NCBI RefSeq assembly: GCF_000017845.1
Contig: NC_010547.1
Location: 330,001 to 362,000 of the forward strand
Source: Crocosphaera subtropica ATCC 51142
GTDB lineage: Bacteria > Cyanobacteriota > Cyanobacteriia > Cyanobacteriales > Microcystaceae
DNA length: 32,000 bases
Direction of reading: 5' to 3'
In this document: piece by piece, positions 5,928-28,269 of the stretch
How positions within the stretch are numbered: position 1 is the stretch's first letter
Layout of the letters: every line of letters starts with the position of its first letter
Translations under genes and position numbers: made by a program
Notes under the pieces: model-generated
What the model was told of the DNA's origin: nothing
The model's input: the letters and a program-made list of their open reading frames with translations, nothing else
The model's database searches: none

Positions 5928-6380
5928 CTAACTTTGATAATTTAGCCAATAAGACGCATCAGATGAGGGTGAAAGAACGATTGTTCTGACAGTCATCCTC
6001 TTAAATTTTCTTTGTCTAGATAGTAGTAAGTCCTGGAAGTGGAAGCCATTTAAAGTTGATAATTTATTAAGATTTTCTAGTTTTAAATGACCATTAACAA
6101 AGTTAATCGTTGTGTACAATTTTTGCTTACCATCGATAATATTCTCATTACTATCTATGACGATATTAAGGACAGGTAAACCCATCAATAAAGATTCGAT
6201 AAAATAAGATTGCTGTCTAGTATCCCAATTAAGCTCATCATCAATTTGTTTTTGACTAATCTGTTCAATGAAAAATTCAAGGGGATATTCTACCGTGTTG
6301 TAATCAACTTTTTTACGACCTTCCTGAATATCCGTTTCTATTAGTTCTTGTTGTTTAATCTTATCTGATTGTAAGTTCAT
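5928..6380 (-). CDS. Short DUF262 / ParB-Srx-fold-like protein with a degenerate DGQQR motif
   Basis: NWDTRQQSYFIESLLMGLPVLNIVIDSNENIIDGKQKLYTTINFVNG matches the DUF262 N-terminal pattern (W...Q..LIDS...G.P......IDGQQRL.T...F), with DGKQK in place of DGQQR. Confidence 0.5.
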   Translation of the reverse strand: MNLQSDKIKQQELIETDIQEGRKKVDYNTVEYPLEFFIEQISQKQIDDELNWDTRQQSYFIESLLMGLPVLNIVIDSNENIIDGKQKLYTTINFVNGHLKLENLNKLSTLNGFHFQDLLLSRQRKFKRMTVRTIVLSPSSDASYWLNYQS

Positions 6381-6407
6381 AATAGTTGTCTCCTAATAAA
6401 GATAAGT

Positions 6408-6938
6408 TTAGTGAAAAGCAGTCAAGGTATGTTCTAATTCTGTCCAAAGTTGTTGAGAAAGCGGACTATTTGAATAAGCTTGTAAAGCCTGTTCAAAATC
6501 TTTTTGTTCCTTAGCATATATCTTGAGTTTTTGAGAATTATATAATCGAGAAGCTCTTAAATTAGCAATTCTATCAGCTAATTTAAGGATAATTGCTTTC
6601 TCATTTTTCCTTGTTTTAGCATAGGTCAAAGCTTTACGTTCTTTGCGATTTCTTCCTGGTTCATCAGTTACAGCTTCAACAATATCAGCAACTTCTTGAC
6701 CAAATCGATTAAGGATTAAGTCATAGGTTAAACTGGTATCTTCAACACTATCATGTAACCAAGCAGCGATAAGAATGAGAGCAGTTTCAGGGTTATTTAA
6801 AGTGGCTCCAAACTCAATCAAAACATTAACCACTTCTTGAAGATGATGATGATAAGGAAAGTTCCCATATTGTTCTCCTTGATGTGCTTTTAATGCCATC
6901 AATTCTGCTGTTTTAAATTGTGCTTCCCAATCAGTCAT
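6408..6938 (-). CDS. Stand-alone HD-domain protein of the RelA/SpoT (Mesh1-like) (p)ppGpp-hydrolase type (small alarmone hydrolase-like)
   Basis: HHHLQEV, AAWLHDSVEDT (HDxxED) and KLADRIANLR are the diagnostic hydrolase-domain motifs. At 176 aa it has no synthetase domain. Confidence 0.8.
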   Translation of the reverse strand: MTDWEAQFKTAELMALKAHQGEQYGNFPYHHHLQEVVNVLIEFGATLNNPETALILIAAWLHDSVEDTSLTYDLILNRFGQEVADIVEAVTDEPGRNRKERKALTYAKTRKNEKAIILKLADRIANLRASRLYNSQKLKIYAKEQKDFEQALQAYSNSPLSQQLWTELEHTLTAFH

Positions 6939-7150
6939 ATTACTTAATTCCTAAACGTTAAGATCGTCGCATAAATCCATCAATCCATCGATTGTCTTCA
7001 ATGCAGTTATAAACAAAATCACCTAATCTTTGCCAACGATGAGAATGTTCACCGTCAACGACAATAGACATCTCCAAGAATCCATAACCCAGTTACAGCA
7101 ATGAAAACAGGCAGATTAAACTTGAAGTCAAAATTAGCCTTCAGAACGAA

Positions 7151-8195
7151 TTAATAAGGGGTTGAAGGAATTAACTCTAATTTGGACATAAAACTATGGC
7201 TCATTATAACGTCAATTACCTCTCCAGATTGGGAGGATTCTATTATTTTCAAAATCAAGGAACTAATTCTCAACCGAACTAATCCACAAACGGTTAACAA
7301 AACCGATTTATATCGACTCTTATGTAAGCGAAATCTTTCTTGAACTACTTTAAATACTTTGACAACTCGAATTAAATGCTCAACAAAAATCCGATTAGAT
7401 GATAAAGCTTTATTTTCTTTTATTTGAGCTTCAGTTAATTCTCTTTTCTTAGTTTTTTTATGCGGAGTGATAATTTGAGTCTCTCCAATGTAGGCTTTAT
7501 CAGCACTAAAAGTTTGGTTTATCTTGAATTTATTTAAAGTTTGCCGACAGATGTTAATGTCACTTGTCGGCCCAGGTTTTCCAATTACTACATCAATAAT
7601 ATCTTCAGCTTTTGGCAAGACAACGAATTGACTTTTTAAAGTATGTCTTTTCTGCTTACCCTGTCTCTTGGTGCGCGTTCCCTAGGCGATTACGAATCGC
7701 CGGGGTCGCACCGCAATAATATTTTTTTTGTTCTTGATAATCTGAAGGTCTTTCAATAGCCTGTTCTGCGCTGTCTACAATCAATTCATAATCAGTTAAC
7801 ATTTCAAGAACTATTTCTTTTTCTTCTTGAAACTTTTTTATTTGTTCTAATAAACTTGGTGGTAACTCTCCTTCAAAAAGTGTTTGCCAATAAGTAAAAA
7901 TATTATGAGCCGTTGACTCACTTACTTGAAAAAGTAGTCCTAAGAGTTGAAAACTTATATTATGTCTTAAATAAACTAACGTTAGAACAATTTGTTCTTC
8001 TTCTGCTAATAAAGATGGACTTCCCGCACCAGGTTGATTAATTCTAATTTTTGTTTTTTCGTTCTCTTCTTTTTTTTTCTGATGAAGAAGCTTCCCTAGA
8101 GCAATCAATTGTTCCAATTGATTGTCATCAATTCCTAATAATCTTTTGGTTTGTTTAGGATATTTTTTTAGATAGCTCCAAGTGTAAGTTTCCAT
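7151..8195 (-). CDS. IS transposase in two frames: HTH_Tnp_4-like N-part 7656..8195; DDE C-part 7151..7660 (first ATG at 7618)
   Basis: N-part: EEQIVLTLVYLRHNISFQLLGLLFQVSESTAHNIF and IVDSAEQAIERP...QKKYYCG. C-part: GKQKRHTLKSQ..., SADKAYIG, SSNRIFVEHLIRVVKVFKVV. This is the typical DDE_Tnp_4 order D...D...E. Confidence 0.85.
7658..7709 (-). other. 52-nt GC-rich hairpin-forming insertion inside the transposase ORF (copy 1)
   Basis: The sense strand reads tat tat tgc GGT [gcgaccccggcgattcgtaatcgcctagggaacgcgcaccaagagacagGGT] aag cag aaa aga cat. Deleting the bracketed 52 nt restores YYCGKQKRHTLK in one frame. ggtgcg/cgcacc, ccc/ggg and ggcgatt/aatcgcc pair to give a stem of about 16 bp. Confidence 0.75.
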
Positions 8196-8425
8196 TCTTT
8201 TTTGAACTAATTATTCATTTTATTATACTATATTTCTTGATTTTATTAAATTATGGAGATGTCTATTACTTATTGTGTTGAACAAGGTTATCGACCTCCT
8301 TGTACGTTAGCTCAATATCATGAATATGTAGAAGCGATCGGCATTCCTTTGATAGAAGCAGATAACCCTAATTATCCTGATTATTGTTTCAGAGCCGCCC
8401 AAATGGTTATGAATTATTAAACTGA

Positions 8426-12205: not shown

Positions 12206-12964
12206 CTACATTATTGAATTAAAAAGTTGCTTCCAATCAATAACGGCGGGTCTTACTCCTGAATTAATGATATCAATAGCTTGATTAATAGTTACGTCAT
12301 AATTCAAACACTCAACGCAAACATTGGCCACATCAATACGGCTCGTTTCTCCATTTAGAGTATCGCCAGTTCCCAGAACAACAGCTTTCTTTCCATCAGT
12401 TTTGGCTCTCAGTAAAGTATTCAGATCATAAGAAGTGTACGGACCATCGATTAATCGTCCAGGTCTGATAATTGTATAAGGTAATCCCGAACTTTTAAGT
12501 GTATTTTCTGCATAGAGTTTAGCATCAAGTACCCCAAAGGTATTAAGAATATTAAAAGGTAATTTATCTTTCCTTAACACACCGCAAGAAGAGACAAACA
12601 CAAATCGTTTGAGGTTTTTAGGAGTAGCTAAAATCAAGTTTTTTACTCCTTCTCCATCCACAGCTTGAGGTGTATTTTTAGGGTCAAATAAGTTAGCAAA
12701 ATCCCATCGTTGTGAAGGAAAAGCCGTGGTTCCTGTACAACAAATAATGTGAGTGACATCTTTCGTGGCTGTCCTCAGAGTATCAGGATAACGAATATCT
12801 CCGACCACAATATCAACTTTATTATCAAACATCTGTTGGGCTTTGTCTTGATTTCGAGTTAAAGCACGAACAGAAAGATTTTTTTCTAATAATTTAGCTA
12901 CCACTAATTGACCGACACCACCGGTAGCACCTGCCACTAAAATTAAATCTGAATTATTTAGCAT
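12206..12964 (-). CDS. NAD(P)-binding atypical SDR / NmrA-like family protein
   Basis: N-terminal ILVAGATGGVGQLVV Rossmann motif (GxxGxxG); length and layout are typical of NAD(P)H-binding SDR proteins. Confidence 0.8.
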   Translation of the reverse strand: MLNNSDLILVAGATGGVGQLVVAKLLEKNLSVRALTRNQDKAQQMFDNKVDIVVGDIRYPDTLRTATKDVTHIICCTGTTAFPSQRWDFANLFDPKNTPQAVDGEGVKNLILATPKNLKRFVFVSSCGVLRKDKLPFNILNTFGVLDAKLYAENTLKSSGLPYTIIRPGRLIDGPYTSYDLNTLLRAKTDGKKAVVLGTGDTLNGETSRIDVANVCVECLNYDVTINQAIDIINSGVRPAVIDWKQLFNSIM

Positions 12965-15889: not shown

Positions 15890-16285
15890 ATGAACTTAAC
15901 ACAATTGTCCGAAACCACCCTTTCTAAAATCAAAACCGTTCGTTGGGATAGGATTATCGAGAAGCATGAAGGCCCTGAAGATTGGGAGTCAGTGTTTCGG
16001 TACTCATCCCCTGAATTTATGGAGATTGAAGGGCGTTGGGTATTACTCCCAGTAGAAAGTTCAAGCCATGCTAACATCACCATTCTACGGACGATTTGGA
16101 GCGAAAATGGTAATTCAGTAACGCTCTTTCTCAAAGATACTACTTACGACGATGATCCTTTCTTCTCTGGTTTTTTGGCTGTCTGTGATCGCTTGATTGG
16201 AGAAGACTTTTATCTAGCGGTTGTTTACCATGAATGGTTCATTATTAGACATCTCCAAGAATCCATAACCCAGTTACAGCAATGA
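15890..16285 (+). CDS. Hypothetical protein whose 3' end is replaced by IS copy 2
   Basis: From 16247 the reading frame runs through IS sequence (RHLQESITQLQQ*). Removing 16248..17446 restores ...EWFIIIDNRLTTH* ending at 17472. Confidence 0.55.
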   Translation: MNLTQLSETTLSKIKTVRWDRIIEKHEGPEDWESVFRYSSPEFMEIEGRWVLLPVESSSHANITILRTIWSENGNSVTLFLKDTTYDDDPFFSGFLAVCDRLIGEDFYLAVVYHEWFIIRHLQESITQLQQ

Positions 16286-16331
16286 AAACAGGCAGATTAA
16301 ACTTGAAGTCAAAATTAGCCTTCAGAACGAA

Positions 16332-17376
16332 TTAATAAGGGGTTGAAGGAATTAACTCTAATTTGGACATAAAACTATGGCTCATTATAACGTCAATTAC
16401 CTCTCCAGATTGGGAGGATTCTATTATTTTCAAAATCAAGGAACTAATTCTCAACCGAACTAATCCACAAACGGTTAACAAAACCGATTTATATCGACTC
16501 TTATGTAAGCGAAATCTTTCTTGAACTACTTTAAATACTTTGACAACTCGAATTAAATGCTCAACAAAAATCCGATTAGATGATAAAGCTTTATTTTCTT
16601 TTATTTGAGCTTCAGTTAATTCTCTTTTCTTAGTTTTTTTATGCGGAGTGATAATTTGAGTCTCTCCAATGTAGGCTTTATCAGCACTAAAAGTTTGGTT
16701 TATCTTGAATTTATTTAAAGTTTGCCGACAGATGTTAATGTCACTTGTCGGCCCAGGTTTTCCAATTACTACATCAATAATATCTTCAGCTTTTGGCAAG
16801 ACAACGAATTGACTTTTTAAAGTATGTCTTTTCTGCTTACCCTGTCTCTTGGTGCGCGTTCCCTAGGCGATTACGAATCGCCGGGGTCGCACCGCAATAA
16901 TATTTTTTTTGTTCTTGATAATCTGAAGGTCTTTCAATAGCCTGTTCTGCGCTGTCTACAATCAATTCATAATCAGTTAACATTTCAAGAACTATTTCTT
17001 TTTCTTCTTGAAACTTTTTTATTTGTTCTAATAAACTTGGTGGTAACTCTCCTTCAAAAAGTGTTTGCCAATAAGTAAAAATATTATGAGCCGTTGACTC
17101 ACTTACTTGAAAAAGTAGTCCTAAGAGTTGAAAACTTATATTATGTCTTAAATAAACTAACGTTAGAACAATTTGTTCTTCTTCTGCTAATAAAGATGGA
17201 CTTCCCGCACCAGGTTGATTAATTCTAATTTTTGTTTTTTCGTTCTCTTCTTTTTTTTTCTGATGAAGAAGCTTCCCTAGAGCAATCAATTGTTCCAATT
17301 GATTGTCATCAATTCCTAATAATCTTTTGGTTTGTTTAGGATATTTTTTTAGATAGCTCCAAGTGTAAGTTTCCAT
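16332..17376 (-). CDS. IS transposase in two frames (16837..17376 and 16332..16841), identical to copy 1
   Basis: The ORF translations are identical to those of copy 1. Confidence 0.85.
16839..16890 (-). other. 52-nt GC-rich hairpin insertion inside the transposase ORF (copy 2)
   Basis: Same sequence as 7658..7709, shifted by 9181. Confidence 0.75.
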
Positions 17377-17477
17377 TCTTTTTTGAACTAATTATTCATT
17401 TTATTATACTATATTTCTTGATTTTATTAAATTATGGAGATGTCTATTGATAACAGATTAACAACACATTGAAATGA

Positions 17478-19506: not shown

Positions 19507-20868
19507 CCAGGGTAAGCTCATCTAAAATGGTATAAAATGTACTTGACTAAGAAAGTAAAGTCTAGGTGAGGCAAAAAGGGACTTAAAATAAAAAAACAAA
19601 GTACAATTAGGACTTTCGTAATTATGGAATCAGAACATGGCCAAGGGGTTTGCAGACCAAAAACAATCTAGTAAGAAAAAAAAGGAAAAGGGAAATATAG
19701 CATCTATTGATGAAATCCAAAACAATTTATTAGGCTATGTCAAAGAAATAGAAGATCCTAGAGTACAAAGAAGCAAAAAACACCTCCTTAAAGATGTATT
19801 GGCGATCGCTATATTGGCAGTCATTGCAGGGTCCCAAGGTTGGGAAGATATGGAGAACTATGGTATCGCAAAACAGGAGTGGTTATCAGAGTTTCTAGAA
19901 CTCCCTCACGGAATCCCGAGTGATGACACATTTAGAAGAGTTTTTGAGAGAATTGATCCAGAATCGCTGCAAAAATGCCTACAAAAATGGGTTCAATCTA
20001 TAATGAATTCAATTCAAGGAGAAATTATCCCCATCGATGGCAAAACATTAAGGGGTTCTTACGATCGCAACGCCGGACAGTGCGCTTTACATACGGTCAC
20101 AGCGTGGGCATCCCAGCAGAGTCTGGTGTTAGGACAAGTCAAAGTTGAAAACTACTCCAATGAAATTACGGCCATTCCTGCCTTACTCGAACTATTAGAC
20201 ATTACAGGCTCGATCATTACCATTGATGCAATGGGAACTCAAACCAGCATTATCCAACAAATTTGTCGGCAAAAAGCTGACTACATTGTTACTCTCAAAG
20301 CTAACCATCCTACTTTATTTTCTCAAGTCAAGCAATGGTTTACTGATACCCAAAACAATGGCTGGGATGGCATTGAACATGATTACTACAAAAGTGTAAC
20401 CAAGGGCCACCACCGCACCGAGAAACGATACGTTTGGGCTATACCAGTAGCAGCTATGGGAGAGCTTTACCAGCAACAACAATGGCATGGACTGCAAACT
20501 ATTGTCGTAGTCGAACGCATCCGTCACTTGTGGAACAAGACTACCCACGATATTCAGTTTTATCTGACCTCTTTACCTCCCAATGCCCAATTCCTTTGCC
20601 ATGCGATCCGCACCCATTGGAGCATTGAGAATAACCTTCATTGGACACTCGATGTCACTTTTTCTGAAGATCAATGCCGTATTCGGTCAGAATATAGTCC
20701 ACAGAACTTTGCTCTTCTAAGACGATTGGCTCTTAATGTTCTCCATCAAGAAAAAACATTTAAACGTAGTCTTCGCCAGAAAATGAAGCAAGCTGCTATG
20801 AACAACAACTATATGATGACTGTTCTCAATTCCTTCTGTCAAGCGGATTTTAGATGAGCTTACCCTGG
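19507..20868 (+). mobile_element. ISAs1-family insertion sequence
   Basis: Perfect 22-bp terminal inverted repeats: ccagggtaagctcatctaaaat (19507..19528) and attttagatgagcttaccctgg (20847..20868). They enclose a single transposase ORF. Confidence 0.85.
19637..20857 (+). CDS. ISAs1-family (H-repeat-associated) DDE transposase
   Basis: N-terminal DPRVQRSKKHLLKDVLAIAILAVIAGSQGWEDMENYG and C-terminal HWSIENNLHWTLDVTFSEDQCRIR are hallmark ISAs1 motifs. Confidence 0.85.
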   Translation: MAKGFADQKQSSKKKKEKGNIASIDEIQNNLLGYVKEIEDPRVQRSKKHLLKDVLAIAILAVIAGSQGWEDMENYGIAKQEWLSEFLELPHGIPSDDTFRRVFERIDPESLQKCLQKWVQSIMNSIQGEIIPIDGKTLRGSYDRNAGQCALHTVTAWASQQSLVLGQVKVENYSNEITAIPALLELLDITGSIITIDAMGTQTSIIQQICRQKADYIVTLKANHPTLFSQVKQWFTDTQNNGWDGIEHDYYKSVTKGHHRTEKRYVWAIPVAAMGELYQQQQWHGLQTIVVVERIRHLWNKTTHDIQFYLTSLPPNAQFLCHAIRTHWSIENNLHWTLDVTFSEDQCRIRSEYSPQNFALLRRLALNVLHQEKTFKRSLRQKMKQAAMNNNYMMTVLNSFCQADFR

Positions 20869-25725: not shown

Positions 25726-26838
25726 CTAATTAATTCTCTGATAATAAGGTAAAATCTCAACGTATTCCGCTTTAGTACCAAACCGACATAAAGCAGTTAA
25801 TTGAGTCAAGGAAGCCACTTTTTTCTCGGCTAATCTAAACTTACTAGATACTTTCTTAACTTCAGTTTGGTCAACGGGTAATACTATTTTTGTACTAGAG
25901 TTCCCAATAACATCCGGTGAGAGGTGACGTTCTGATTGAGAGGCTAAAACTAACCCTAACCCGTATTTACGACCATCAGCAATGATTCGGTCACAAGCTG
26001 GTGATTTCTTTAATTCCTTAGCTTCATCAATAAACAAGTAAGTTTTAGGTAATTTATCCCCGGCTTCTCCCATTAATCGATGTTGATTCATCAGTTGAAG
26101 GGCTAAAGATTCCGCAGCGATCGCTCCAATTTCTGGGGGTAATTTTGATAAGTCAATTCTAATATGTTTCTCTTTAAAAGCTGGTTGTTCTCGACTGAAA
26201 ACACCATATTGAAATGTAGCAGCTAATTTAAGTAACAGTTTTTGAGATTCTTTACAACCGTCTTCAATTCTATCTTTTATCTCTTGTTCAAGGTTAACAA
26301 AATTAGGAGGTATTTTCATCCAAGTCTTACTATCACTTTGAAATATCCCTTTAGTTTCATAACATTGACTGAGGATTTCTAACATTAATCCTTCTTGGTT
26401 GGGACCGAATCTCAGGGATTTTTTGAGAGTAGCCGTCACAGCGATCGCTTGTAAATTGGGGCCTCCCCCTTCAGGATCTAAGTTAACCGTTAACGGGTTA
26501 ATACCATGAGGACTGGCCATGTGTAAAGGATAGACGGTTTCTCCCGCTATTTGTTGATCACCATGAAAGTCAATAATGAATAATTGAATATTAGGATAAG
26601 TCTGTCTTAATGAGTAGGCGATCGCTTTGAGAGTTTGAGTTTTACCGCTTCCTGATGCACCAATGGCAACAATATGACCATTGGGTAATGAGGTCGGATT
26701 CCAATAACAATCTTTTCGGTCAGTTTCCCCTAAGAAAATACCATCGGTTAACTGTTTATTATCTTCTTGAACTTGGGAATCATCAACGGTTAAAATGGCA
26801 GATGGTAAGGGTTTTTCTTTTGATTTGAAGTTAAACAT
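25726..26838 (-). CDS. HerA/FtsK-superfamily (DUF87-like) P-loop ATPase
   Basis: Walker A IGASGSGKTQT; Walker B TYLFIDEAKEL; GLGLVLASQSERHLSPDVIGNSSTKIVL. Confidence 0.7.
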   Translation of the reverse strand: MFNFKSKEKPLPSAILTVDDSQVQEDNKQLTDGIFLGETDRKDCYWNPTSLPNGHIVAIGASGSGKTQTLKAIAYSLRQTYPNIQLFIIDFHGDQQIAGETVYPLHMASPHGINPLTVNLDPEGGGPNLQAIAVTATLKKSLRFGPNQEGLMLEILSQCYETKGIFQSDSKTWMKIPPNFVNLEQEIKDRIEDGCKESQKLLLKLAATFQYGVFSREQPAFKEKHIRIDLSKLPPEIGAIAAESLALQLMNQHRLMGEAGDKLPKTYLFIDEAKELKKSPACDRIIADGRKYGLGLVLASQSERHLSPDVIGNSSTKIVLPVDQTEVKKVSSKFRLAEKKVASLTQLTALCRFGTKAEYVEILPYYQRIN

Positions 26839-26840
26839 GA

Positions 26841-26868
26841 TTAATAGTTAATAGTTAATAGTTAATAG
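26841..26868. repeat. Heptanucleotide tandem repeat (TTAATAG)x4
   Basis: Four perfect units followed by ttaaaaa. The array begins 2 nt upstream of the ATPase start codon (in the gene sense, CTATTAA x4 then tcATG). Confidence 0.9.
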
Positions 26869-26925
26869 TTAAAAATTGACATTTGGTGGTTAAGAATTGA
26901 TAGTCTTTTCCTCTTCAATTATTCA

Positions 26926-27372
26926 CTATAAACTAATAATGTTTTGAGGACGAAGGATAGTAATGTTAGGAATAGGAATAAAGTCAGTAGGATTAAAAGT
27001 TAATAAATGAGTGATTTTATAAGTTTTCATAACCGCTAGTAATCTGATGTCATGGATACGTTTTCCTTTAATCTCATATTCAGTTACCAGATTTAACCAA
27101 AACAGAAATATATCAGCAGTTTCTGTTAATAAAGGAAATTGAGCTAAAAACTCCTCAATTTCTTTTTGAGTTTTCTTGACTGTCCATCCTAAACCATTAA
27201 CATCAGTTGGGCGTGTTGCTACTACCCAAAATTCCACTAATACCTGGGATGTAATATAACAGTTTCCTCCTTCCTCTATAATCTTATTTACAGCATTTCT
27301 AGCAAGAGAATAACTTGAAGAATTAGGGTCTACTGACCGTAATAAAATGTTAGTATCTAATAAATAGTTCAT
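26926..27372 (-). CDS. vapC: PIN-domain toxin (VapC-like)
   Basis: MNYLLDTNILL (Asp6), VLVEFW, IHDIRLLAV and TFNPTDF are the conserved acidic positions of PIN domains. 2-nt gap to the upstream antitoxin gene. Confidence 0.8.
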   Translation of the reverse strand: MNYLLDTNILLRSVDPNSSSYSLARNAVNKIIEEGGNCYITSQVLVEFWVVATRPTDVNGLGWTVKKTQKEIEEFLAQFPLLTETADIFLFWLNLVTEYEIKGKRIHDIRLLAVMKTYKITHLLTFNPTDFIPIPNITILRPQNIISL

Positions 27373-27374
27373 TA

Positions 27375-27611
27375 TTAATCTTCATACATAGTATCTCGGT
27401 GTAAAGCGGATTCTGGTAACGGAGGATTATTTGATGAGTGACTATCAACAAATTTACGCCATTTTTCGGCTCTTTCTTTTGGTGTAAGATTAGGGTCAGG
27501 AGAAGGAAGCGAGTGCGTTTTTGTTAGAGTTTCTGTAAAGTTTAAAACTTCTTGCTGTTTCTCTATGGGAAGTTTCCTTAAGTTTTCAATTACCGCTTGT
27601 TCAATATTCAT
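27375..27611 (-). CDS. Cognate antitoxin (DUF2281-like)
   Basis: NLRKLPIEKQQEVLNFTETL is the pattern I recall for DUF2281 antitoxins. The ATG at 27611 is preferred over the TTG at 27623. Confidence 0.6.
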   Translation of the reverse strand: MNIEQAVIENLRKLPIEKQQEVLNFTETLTKTHSLPSPDPNLTPKERAEKWRKFVDSHSSNNPPLPESALHRDTMYED

Positions 27612-27657
27612 TGTTGTTTTCAACTCCTTTTAACATAATCTAAATTGTGAAAATCAA

Positions 27658-28143
27658 TTAATTAACCCCAGAAAGGTTTTTCATTTGAGCAAATAATTGA
27701 TGCAATTTGTCAGGATTCATTGCTTGTTGATACTGGTTAGCCATTTCAGGGGTTAAGAGTTCTAACATGACGGTATTTTCAATCCAAAATTCCATCACTT
27801 CAAACAATCCTTCTCGACTACAATGAATGACTCGCCATCCTTCTTTTTGTCCAATTTCTTCAATTTCTTTTTGACTTAATGGCACAGAAATTGCTGCGTG
27901 AGTAGCAGTAAATTGAGAACTAGAATCATTTTGTTTAAACTGTAATTCGTCTTGGTTAGTACCAGGGGTTAATTCTGTTCCTTTGGGATAAACTTCAATC
28001 GCTGTCCCATACTCATCAAAAGCAAAACTCATATAACTTCCAGGATGGGGCGGAAATTCCGTAAATTCTCCTTTAAAGACTTCTGCTAAAACAGACGCAA
28101 CATGCTTGGGATTATCAACCGCAATAGATAAGTGAAATATCAT
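27658..28143 (-). CDS. Glyoxalase/VOC-fold-like protein
   Basis: MIFHLSIAVDNPKHVASVLAEVF...GTAIEVYPKG resembles VOC family N-termini; assignment is tentative. Confidence 0.5.
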   Translation of the reverse strand: MIFHLSIAVDNPKHVASVLAEVFKGEFTEFPPHPGSYMSFAFDEYGTAIEVYPKGTELTPGTNQDELQFKQNDSSSQFTATHAAISVPLSQKEIEEIGQKEGWRVIHCSREGLFEVMEFWIENTVMLELLTPEMANQYQQAMNPDKLHQLFAQMKNLSGVN

Positions 28144-28269
28144 ACTTTTTTAAAAAATAATGATTAGTTTTATTATACTTTTAATTAACCTTAATTATCC
28201 TCACAATTAAACTACCACTAACATAATAATCACCTAATAAGTTAGCCACTTGTTGGGGACTAGCAGAAG

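Follow-up and report, generated by a model that had tools for sequence, protein, structure and literature searches.

The transposase gene of an IS5-family insertion sequence (IS) in Crocosphaera subtropica ATCC 51142 is divided by a GC-rich hairpin, and both copies of this IS in the 32,000-nt stretch of DNA analysed here (contig NC_010547.1, positions 330,001 to 362,000 of the forward strand; hereafter the window) carry the same hairpin. We put at about 0.7 the probability that a 51-nt mini-element inserted with a one-base junction error and split the gene, and that the identical copies were produced by the transposase of an intact copy, which has been lost or is present in related cells. It is probable that the transposase gene no longer works and that ribosomes do not hop over the insert. 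Positions are counted from the first letter of the window and are collected in Table 1.

The split transposase gene

The original prediction, made from the letters of the window alone, stated that the transposase is split, with its DDE part resuming in the +1 frame as GKQKRHTLKSQ..., that the insert is GC-rich in an AT-rich element, that it folds into a stem of about 16 bp, and that IS copy 2 contains an identical insert. These statements were confirmed. The open reading frames (ORFs) show the split, and the GC content of the hairpin core is 0.67 against ca. 33% for the IS overall. The hairpin forms 6 + 3 + 7 = 16 bp at -23.9 kcal/mol (z-score -2.2, which is weak for one sequence), and IS copies 1 and 2, both on the minus strand, are 100% identical across 1203 nt.

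The upstream ORF (ORF A) ends in ...QKKYYCGATPAIRNRLGNAHQETG* and traverses the element in element frame b as CGATPAIRNRLGNAHQETG. It includes the first catalytic Asp of the family, within ...LIVDSAEQ. The downstream ORF (ORF B) is 155 aa long, and its earliest possible start codon is TTG at 7618. The ORF A frame and the +1 frame overlap in an open segment at 7681-7656. Judging from the domains that each retains, the two products should both be inactive on their own. Their sequences, ORF A and ORF B, match the proteins cce_5134 and cce_5133 of ATCC 51142 exactly, in that order, and each is represented by at least four accessions. A truncated neighbour copy of the same strain, cce_1100, also ends in the hairpin peptide.

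The IS is bounded by terminal inverted repeats (TAGACATCTCCA), its transposase carries the HTH_Tnp_4 and DDE_Tnp_4 domains that characterize the IS5 family, and the relatives of this transposase are annotated in databases as 'IS5 family transposase'. Deletion of 52 nt yielded one 330-aa ORF with a single uninterrupted DDE_Tnp_4 match (profile positions 1-157 of 158), and the fused ORF matched PF13613 and PF13359 with E = 2.8e-18 and E = 8.9e-30, respectively. The predicted effect of this deletion on the reading frame was thus borne out. However, the restored block reads YYCGKQKRHT, which the original prediction took to be conserved, whereas the homologues have YYSGKQKRHT. A 70% repeat at 28130-28179 was considered as a further IS remnant and ruled out, as it is an AT-rich intergenic stretch. 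No copy of the exact window IS was found in the PLSDB plasmid collection.

Insertion boundaries and the surplus base

As checks, it had been proposed to align the split gene with the two Pfam families and its closest intact relatives, and to search for the hairpin as a dispersed repeat and for IS copies that lack it. The alignment matched both domains and placed the insertion point in a Ser codon, and the search revealed a large hairpin family and a hairpin-free transposase, P0001, in metagenome data. P0001 (a 330-aa single ORF from a JGI metagenome) is identical to the fused ORF at 329 of 330 residues, and the sole difference is at the junction. The close relatives are likewise single 330-aa ORFs, and YYSGKQKRHT, not YYCG, is found in P0001 and every close homologue. 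The intact copies, P0001 and P0129, are known from metagenomes only.

The ancestral codons were read from the DNA of the intact relatives L194 (86% identical) and L195 (89%), not from the DNA of P0001. In both, the empty site is AAATATTATT|CGGGTAAGCAG, i.e., TCG GGT, which can also be written as TATTATT|CGGGTAAG. The window copy reads TATTATT, the 48-nt core (7714..7667, GCGG...CACCAAG), and then AGA-C-A-GGGTAAG. On this alignment, the insert begins after the first base of the Ser codon in ...KKYY-S-GKQKRH, and the Cys codon of the window copies is a chimera of host T and element GC. The net gain at this site is 52 nt, comprising the 51-nt unit and one surplus base. Given the codons of L194 and L195, the simplest candidate for the surplus base is the A at 7662; were the Ser codon of P0001 TCA, it would be a G instead. 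There is one base too many either way. This surplus base turns an in-frame gain of 51 nt into one of 52 nt and thereby cuts the transposase into ORF A and the +1-frame ORF B.

The empty sites also changed the proposed borders of the insert. The original prediction had the insert flanked by two GGT repeats. Their agreement is a coincidence, since one GGT belongs to the invariant GCGGT at the 5' end of the element and the other is a Gly codon of the host, and the insert consists instead of the unit within the Ser codon and the surplus base.

Fold and covariation of the hairpin family

Within the window, the hairpin segment is confined to the two IS copies. Its 48-nt core has the form GCGGTGCGACCCC-(7-bp stem, 3-nt loop)-TAGGGAACGCGCACCAAG and, with the tail AGA, makes up the 51-nt unit. 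The consensus of the family is GCGGTGCGACCC(C/T)-(7-bp stem, 3-nt loop)-N-A-(G/A)GGAACGCGCACCAAG, with the tail A(C/G)A. The apical stem and its loop differ widely in sequence between copies, the stem always remaining paired, in contrast to the conserved arms GCGGTGCGACCC and GGAACGCGCACCAAG; the invariance of the arms is uninformative, since the search pattern fixed them. The core is exactly 48 nt long in 122 of 126 cases, and 77 different apical sequences occur among 129 instances.

We tested the 16-pair model on 89 distinct cores, with 500 shuffles and slid registers as controls. Standard pairs occupied 97.6% of the cells, compared to 78.5% after shuffling. Ten pairs had changed on both sides (255 cells); none of the 500 shuffles reached the observed values, and no slid register came close. 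For example, pair 13-33 alternates between C-G and U-A, and the basal stem shows rare switches from GGTGCG/CGCACC to GGTCAG/CTGACC. On the evidence of this covariation, the structure of the hairpin is under selection. In addition, G-U pairs occupy about 16 cells, compared to at most two cells of the A-C type in stem pairs 13-18. The imbalance suggests that it is the strand as written that folds, which would occur as single-stranded DNA or RNA and not as a symmetric duplex; since one sublineage contributes several of the G-U cells, the support for one-strand folding is moderate.

Rfam 15 gave no relevant match for window positions 7500-7900 at E values up to 10. Three other readings of the hairpin were rejected. 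A tRNA-like or minihelix reading of '...GCGCACCA' was dropped since the CCA lies inside the basal stem and the sequence departs from the T-loop consensus. An intrinsic terminator on the reverse strand (a hairpin and then a T run), suggested by the A-rich 5' flank, was rejected since the window copy is not terminator-like and the A run is already present in the empty sites. A guide-like role for the apex was also set aside, as the apical sequence recurred in the flanks in 9 of 136 cases compared to 4 in the control.

Distribution and mobility of the hairpin family

The proposal that the insert is a small palindromic mobile element was upheld by its dispersal, its filled and empty sites, and the covariation described above. 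A scan of the genome collection, which used the apical stem of the window copy only, gave 69 matching loci. The 16 cyanobacterial ones among them have the entire 48-nt core in common; they come from Crocosphaera watsonii WH 8501, Crocosphaera chwakensis, four Crocosphaera metagenome-assembled genomes (MAGs), 'Unicellular cyanobacterium SU3', two Lyngbya genomes, and a cyanobacterial MAG. Plasmids of Stanieria PCC 7437 and Chondrocystis NIES-4102 have copies with different apical stems. A pattern of the arms only was found in at least 120 metagenome contigs and in one IMG/VR viral contig (L193). Sequence-string and keyword searches found no published description of the family, which is weak evidence that none exists.

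The copies always have the same orientation relative to their own sequence. The base preceding the core was A in 109, T in 18, G in 2, and C in none of 129 copies, and positions -5 to -2 are A-rich too. Since the A run is already present in the empty sites, it represents a target preference and not a part of the element. The tail is ACA or AGA in 101 of the 129 copies. In the typical context, AAAAA|GCGGTGCG, a run of six or more A's creates A_AAA_AAG followed by the stem, which is formally a -1 slippery heptamer of the dnaX/IS3 type with a downstream hairpin.

Comparison of filled and empty sites gave a net gain of 51 nt in about ten cases, 50 nt in two, and 48 nt in two. Two further gains within A runs were 52 or 53 nt, a copy with a longer core (L178) gained about 53 nt, and the window site gained 52 nt. 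Six filled/empty pairs are at least 85% identical; in these, the 5' junction is clean, and three of the six show a one-base error at the 3' junction, a pattern into which the surplus base of the window fits. Copies are also nested in one another at a fixed point, stem-TA^GGGAAC (L037, L086, L096, and L166). No target-site duplication was evident in the nested copies or the filled/empty comparisons. The presence of the hairpin in only one of two 95% identical loci (L078 and L063), and likewise the difference between the window IS and P0001, show recent mobility. The family differs from MITEs (transposable elements of the miniature inverted-repeat type) in that exactly 51 nt are inserted without a duplicated flank and no parent IS with matching ends was seen; inverted repeats taken alone are ambiguous here, as the arms of the hairpin pair with each other.

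Head-to-tail tandem copies with a 51-nt period occur in the viral contig L193, where arrays at 1404-1502, 2116-2265, and 12721-12870 contain two, three, and three units, respectively, at an exact period. Arrays of this contig form in-frame C-terminal codons of one ORF (205 aa) and in-frame N-terminal codons of another, which is DHH/DHHA1-like (359 aa). Judging from this contig, the hairpin also lives in a putative phage genome. Another homologue of an invaded gene is found in the window itself: positions 20542-20661 are ca. 71% identical to the host gene that carries the hairpin in metagenome locus L094 and contain no insert, representing an empty site.

The hairpin inside other genes

Among the evaluable metagenome copies, 38 of 106 (about 36%) lie in ORFs that are open for at least 40 codons on both sides, while random positions in the same loci gave 52%; the hairpin is therefore not gene-specific. 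Half of the copies within long ORFs are in transposase genes, especially those for TnpB. With 30 or more codons required on either side, 59 host ORFs can be read through the element without a stop, as in palindromic repeats that are inserted in frame. Pfam matches of these 59 hosts included OrfB_IS605 (TnpB) in 18 and DDE transposase families in about 13 (DDE_Tnp_1, 1_3, 1_4, ISL3, DDE_3, IS1, and ISAZ013). Among the remaining hosts are an AMP-binding/PKS-like megaprotein with acyl-CoA dehydrogenase and PP-binding matches, SMC_N, a phage integrase, a response regulator, and CobN. Two of the host ORFs are annotated plasmid coding sequences.

Two sense frames of the element have no stop, and replacement of CTAGGG with CAAGGG or CCAGGG opens the third as well. 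The peptides encoded are KRCDP...RERAPR in the first frame, (C/S)GATP...GNAHQ in the second, and AVRP...GTRTK in the third. With 51 nt equal to 17 codons and two to three stop-free sense frames, the element usually leaves the frame of its host open. Copies read in the first frame (frame a) have CGC or CAC loops, which avoid the TAA of the CGT loop. This choice of loops indicates that the element is not skipped and that the frame in which it is read is of importance. On the other hand, of 44 copies that are flanked on either side by 70 or more open codons, 17 contain the in-frame TAG or stand between sequences in different frames. The genes damaged in this way include IS1-like, IS630-like, ISL3, and ISAZ013-like transposase genes, and the window IS is one case of this gene-breaking class.

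Several individual hosts are worth recording. Insertions in tnpB (L008, L012, L014, L037, L052, L066, L076, L095, L109, L118, L160, L161, L170, L186, and others) recur at the same protein positions, e.g., ...MVKN^RKLAK... and ...SRKQK^GSNN..., with apical stems that differ between the genes. In two apparently functional non-mobile genes, the hairpin lies just before the ...FLRTGDLG motif of a 1294-aa AMP-binding/acyl-CoA-dehydrogenase/PP-binding protein (L074:1881-5762) and in the N-terminal region of an SMC protein (L147:182-847). The transposase P0108 of Moorea sp., a member of the same IS family, has a 17-residue in-frame insert, EVRPVANLIRQRKAHLR, between DKAYL and EPQIRTP, which resembles a diverged version of the element, located at a second site in this transposase family. 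At L063:5797-5847, the hairpin stands four codons into an IS200-type tnpA (MSQQ^...RKTSHTVSLINYHFVW...), and its net length appears to break the frame. The L063 copy abuts the 5' end of this tnpA, which is its host gene and not a RAYT gene.

Origin and propagation of the split copies

The hairpin is a copy of a very small, non-coding, structure-defined dispersed element, and it inserted in the Ser codon of the YYSGKQKRH block. The element may move as a folded single top strand that is handled by some enzyme, and the surplus base may have arisen at integration. We propose that the hairpin-bearing IS is non-autonomous and that its identical copies were made by transposase supplied from an intact copy. 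Such a copy, P0001, exists in related populations and would have been lost from, or be unannotated in, ATCC 51142.

Propagation in trans is consistent with two deletion derivatives in SU3, L009:956-1681 and L058 (at the end of the locus). They occupy two different loci and retain both the hairpin and the surplus base. In both, the left end and 5' untranslated region are joined directly to ...ELIVDSAEQ, and most of ORF A is gone. These internally deleted copies cannot encode the transposase, indicating that the IS lineage moved in trans, and they behave as MITE-like non-autonomous copies. The original prediction had listed a dead copy mobilised in trans among its possible explanations; with the hairpin-bearing deleted copies L009, L058, and cce_1100, this is the most likely consequence of the insertion.

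Some results weigh against this proposal. Neither the best 120 clusters nor the two clusters containing ORF A and ORF B included an intact 330-aa relative from the 4.93-Mb chromosome of ATCC 51142, so the donor of a trans-acting transposase is one that we infer. Compared with intact P0001, the split gene has no disabling change beyond the junction, and this lack of further defects fits a very recent event and equally fits continued function. One-strand folding, fixed orientation, a short A-rich target, and the lack of a target duplication recall the REP/RAYT and IS200/IS605 systems, as does the relatedness of the A-rich sequences at the target and at the 3' end of the element. However, one-base junction errors would be unexpected of a precise HUH-type single-strand transposase; an imprecise 3' junction and a tail that varies within one apical subfamily would fit a copying or repair step better. 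Finally, both the number of copies and their split between genes and intergenic DNA were estimated from biased samples in which no genome was read as a whole.

The continued function that the intact sequence allows would require both frames to be translated as one protein. In a prfB-type +1 frameshift at ACA-GGG-UAA-G, made by a small minority of ribosomes, peptidyl-tRNA-Gly would slip from GGG to GGU with the stop codon in the A site, giving the junction peptide ...GNAHQETGKQKRHTLK. The IS would then remain autonomous, making a full transposase with a 17-residue insert (...YYCGATPAIRNRLGNAHQETGKQKRH...), and ORF A could by itself be a DNA-binding regulator of reduced length, as is known from IS1 and IS3 elements. 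The site GGG-UAA-G, named in the original prediction, is indeed present, re-pairing of GGG to GGU keeps two of three positions, and a single +1 event within the open overlap would fuse the frames, so this option is formally possible. It would account for the 100% identity of the window copies, for the lack of other gene defects relative to P0001, and for the finding that each of the identical split ORFs has at least four accessions in ATCC 51142 while no intact copy was seen there among the clusters listed. The same element-frame peptide also occurs within an open IS4-like ORF (L049 and L149). Nevertheless, we regard this frameshift as unlikely. The sequence upstream of GGG-UAA, CACCAAGAGACA, has no GGAGG-like Shine-Dalgarno stimulator, which prfB-type shifts have about 3 nt before the site, and UAA followed by G terminates translation efficiently. 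Only the hairpin-bearing lineage has the site, and its relatives are single ORFs. A gain of 52 nt is not a recurrent design, as other hosts show +50, +52, +53, and in-frame TAGs, as random damage would give, and the deletion derivatives show that the IS lineage was mobilised in trans anyway. Rescue of the gene by transcriptional slippage at the upstream A8 run was ruled out, because the +1 frame has a TAG within the element.

The identity of all copies and the lack of an intact one among the ATCC 51142 clusters listed would be explained as well if a burst of intact IS copies came first and the hairpin with its extra base, acquired by one of them, then spread to all copies by gene conversion, which is common between dispersed identical repeats. 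This order of events is improbable, in that many conversions would be needed, including some into the deletion derivatives, and it is less parsimonious than copying of a hairpin-bearing template. Far less probable still is the explanation by which the 52 nt would be skipped or removed, either through GGT-to-GGT translational bypass of the T4 gene 60 or mitochondrial byp type, with the junction peptide ...KKYYCGKQKRHTLK, or at the RNA level. Such a bypass is suggested by a mobile, GC-rich hairpin of about 50 nt that stands between two identical GGT codons within an AT-rich gene, and byp elements and the gene 60 cassette are mobile inserts as well (bioRxiv 10.1101/2022.08.31.505936). However, a hop would give YYCG, while all homologues and empty sites specify YYSG (TCG GGT), and one GGT comes from the invariant 5' end of the element and the other from the host. 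The take-off GGT is followed by GCG ACC CCG... and 17 open codons, with no stop or hungry codon. In other genes, the frames stay open through members of the family, and the frame a loops CGC and CAC avoid TAA. Moreover, the net gain of 51 nt that predominates among coding filled/empty pairs would be irrelevant if the insert were skipped or spliced out, and Rfam offers no match. On the Ser/Cys mismatch, the missing stop at take-off, and the open frames elsewhere, we abandoned the bypass that the original prediction had put forward.

Insertion of the mini-element with a junction error, followed by mobilisation in trans, thus remains our preferred reading. A bolder combination, in which the hairpins form an uncatalogued class of ultra-small, frame-neutral mobile DNA recognised by shape and moved by some enzyme as a folded single strand, with a preference for transposase genes, above all those for TnpB, and have made this IS dependent on rare +1 frameshifting at GGG-UAA, is doubtful. 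If true, it would explain why several identical hairpin copies and no intact copy were seen.

Coordinates and surroundings of the IS copies

Genes of defence or addiction type surround the IS copies (window 5928-6938 and 25726-27623). The neighbours of copy 1 encode a GmrSD_N (DUF262) protein and an HD_4 protein (5928-6938). Further on, 25726-27623 contains genes for a putative HerA-like ATPase and a PIN-domain toxin, and a small antitoxin-like ORF; these labels were assigned by visual reading of the translations. Close to 8343 there is a HIP1 site, GCGATCGC.

Table 1 Positions in the window of the two IS copies, their ORFs, and the hairpin unit with its 3' junction.
Feature	Position	Strand	Description
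IS copy 1	7065..8267	-	IS5-family element; inverted repeats TAGACATCTCCA at 7065-7076 and 8254-8265
IS copy 2	16246..17448	-	Identical to copy 1; same hairpin and same surplus base
ORF A, 179 aa	7656..8195	-	HTH_Tnp_4 and start of DDE domain to ...KKYY; TAA at 7656-7658
ORF A equivalent in copy 2	16837-17376	-	
+1 frame with remaining DDE domain (GKQKRHTLKSQ...)	7151..7681	-	Open just after element TAG 7682-7684
+1 frame equivalent in copy 2	16332-16862	-	
Hairpin unit, 51 nt	7664..7714	-	Core 7667-7714 (GCGGTGCGACCCCGGCGATTCGTAATCGCCTAGGGAACGCGCACCAAG); tail AGA 7664-7666; covariance model 71.5 bits, E = 2e-19
Hairpin unit in copy 2	16845..16895	-	Same 51-nt unit
3' junction C-A-GGG	7659..7663	-	Empty sites C-GGG; one surplus base
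3' junction in copy 2	16840-16844	-	

Implications and comparison with known systems

What looked like a recoding signal is, on our preferred reading, a parasite within a parasite, i.e., a mini-element that knocked out, or at least split, a transposase gene. The family to which it belongs is abundant in cyanobacteria of marine and benthic origin, and a viral contig contains it as well. A fixed length of 17 codons, together with open frames, lets it persist inside genes. As a practical consequence, the element inflates and fragments gene calls for TnpB and other transposases, and gene pairs of the cce_5133/5134 type should be annotated as one interrupted gene. The unusually clean covariation of the stem makes the family a natural test case for structure-specific recognition of DNA or RNA, and a mobilising enzyme, if found, would add a minimal substrate to the few hairpin-directed mobility systems.

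Decoding systems offer a superficial parallel. The T4 gene 60 cassette and the mitochondrial byp elements are, like the hairpin, mobile inserts of about 50 nt with a hairpin in a coding gene. For bypass, the take-off and landing codons must match and their joining must restore the native protein; further signals are a stop or hungry codon at take-off, a nascent-peptide signal, and a Shine-Dalgarno sequence within the gap (10.1101/2022.08.31.505936). The decoding signals of gene 60 and byp are absent at the window hairpin. The two-ORF transposases of IS1 and IS3 resemble the split IS in having an upstream DNA-binding ORF and a catalytic ORF in another frame. However, they use a -1 shift with an A-rich slippery heptamer and a downstream structure throughout the family, whereas the split in the window is a recent lesion that needs a +1 shift.

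Among mobile repeats, the small dispersed repeats (SDRs) of Nostoc, reportedly described by Elhai et al. in 2008, are said to be very small cyanobacterial mobile repeats that nest in each other and in other mobile elements. They are reportedly 21-27 nt long and found in heterocystous cyanobacteria, and in size and reported sequence they do not match the hairpin family, which is probably distinct from them.

The REP/REPIN elements, which RAYT tyrosine transposases (Y1, HUH) mobilise, share with the hairpin the form of a short, GC-rich, imperfect hairpin with conserved unpaired ends, covariation, and G-T pairs indicative of the folding of one strand. REPs are dispersed in many copies, some of which are inside genes (PMC3733652), and are defined as palindromes of 20-40 nt with a GTAG or CGTC tetranucleotide at one end (PMC3733652). 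In contrast, neither strand of the 48-nt consensus core GCGG...CAAG contains a GTAG or CGTC tag, and the hairpin measures 48-51 nt against 20-40 nt. The peptides of the element were absent from the text supplementary files of PMC3733652, including its list of intragenic REPs. Copies of the hairpin form head-to-tail tandem arrays, while REPINs are inverted doublets.

The Rickettsia palindromic elements (RPEs; Ogata et al. 2000) are also similar. According to the passages on them in PMC3733652 and PMC3184786, they are dispersed palindromes that lie in frame in genes, adding a peptide, and also occur between genes. They differ in being alphaproteobacterial and in their CGTC tag, as far as the account in PMC3733652 goes. 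The hairpin family is unlike RPEs in its fixed 51-nt unit, its other conserved arms, its hypervariable apical stem, its A-run target, and its tandem and nested copies, and there is no sequence relation between the two. RPEs are also longer, at about 100-150 nt, than the 51-nt hairpin unit. The behaviour of the hairpin is closest to that of the Rickettsia palindromic elements and the REP elements, and the family apparently consists of uncatalogued small palindromic dispersed repeats rather than a new category.

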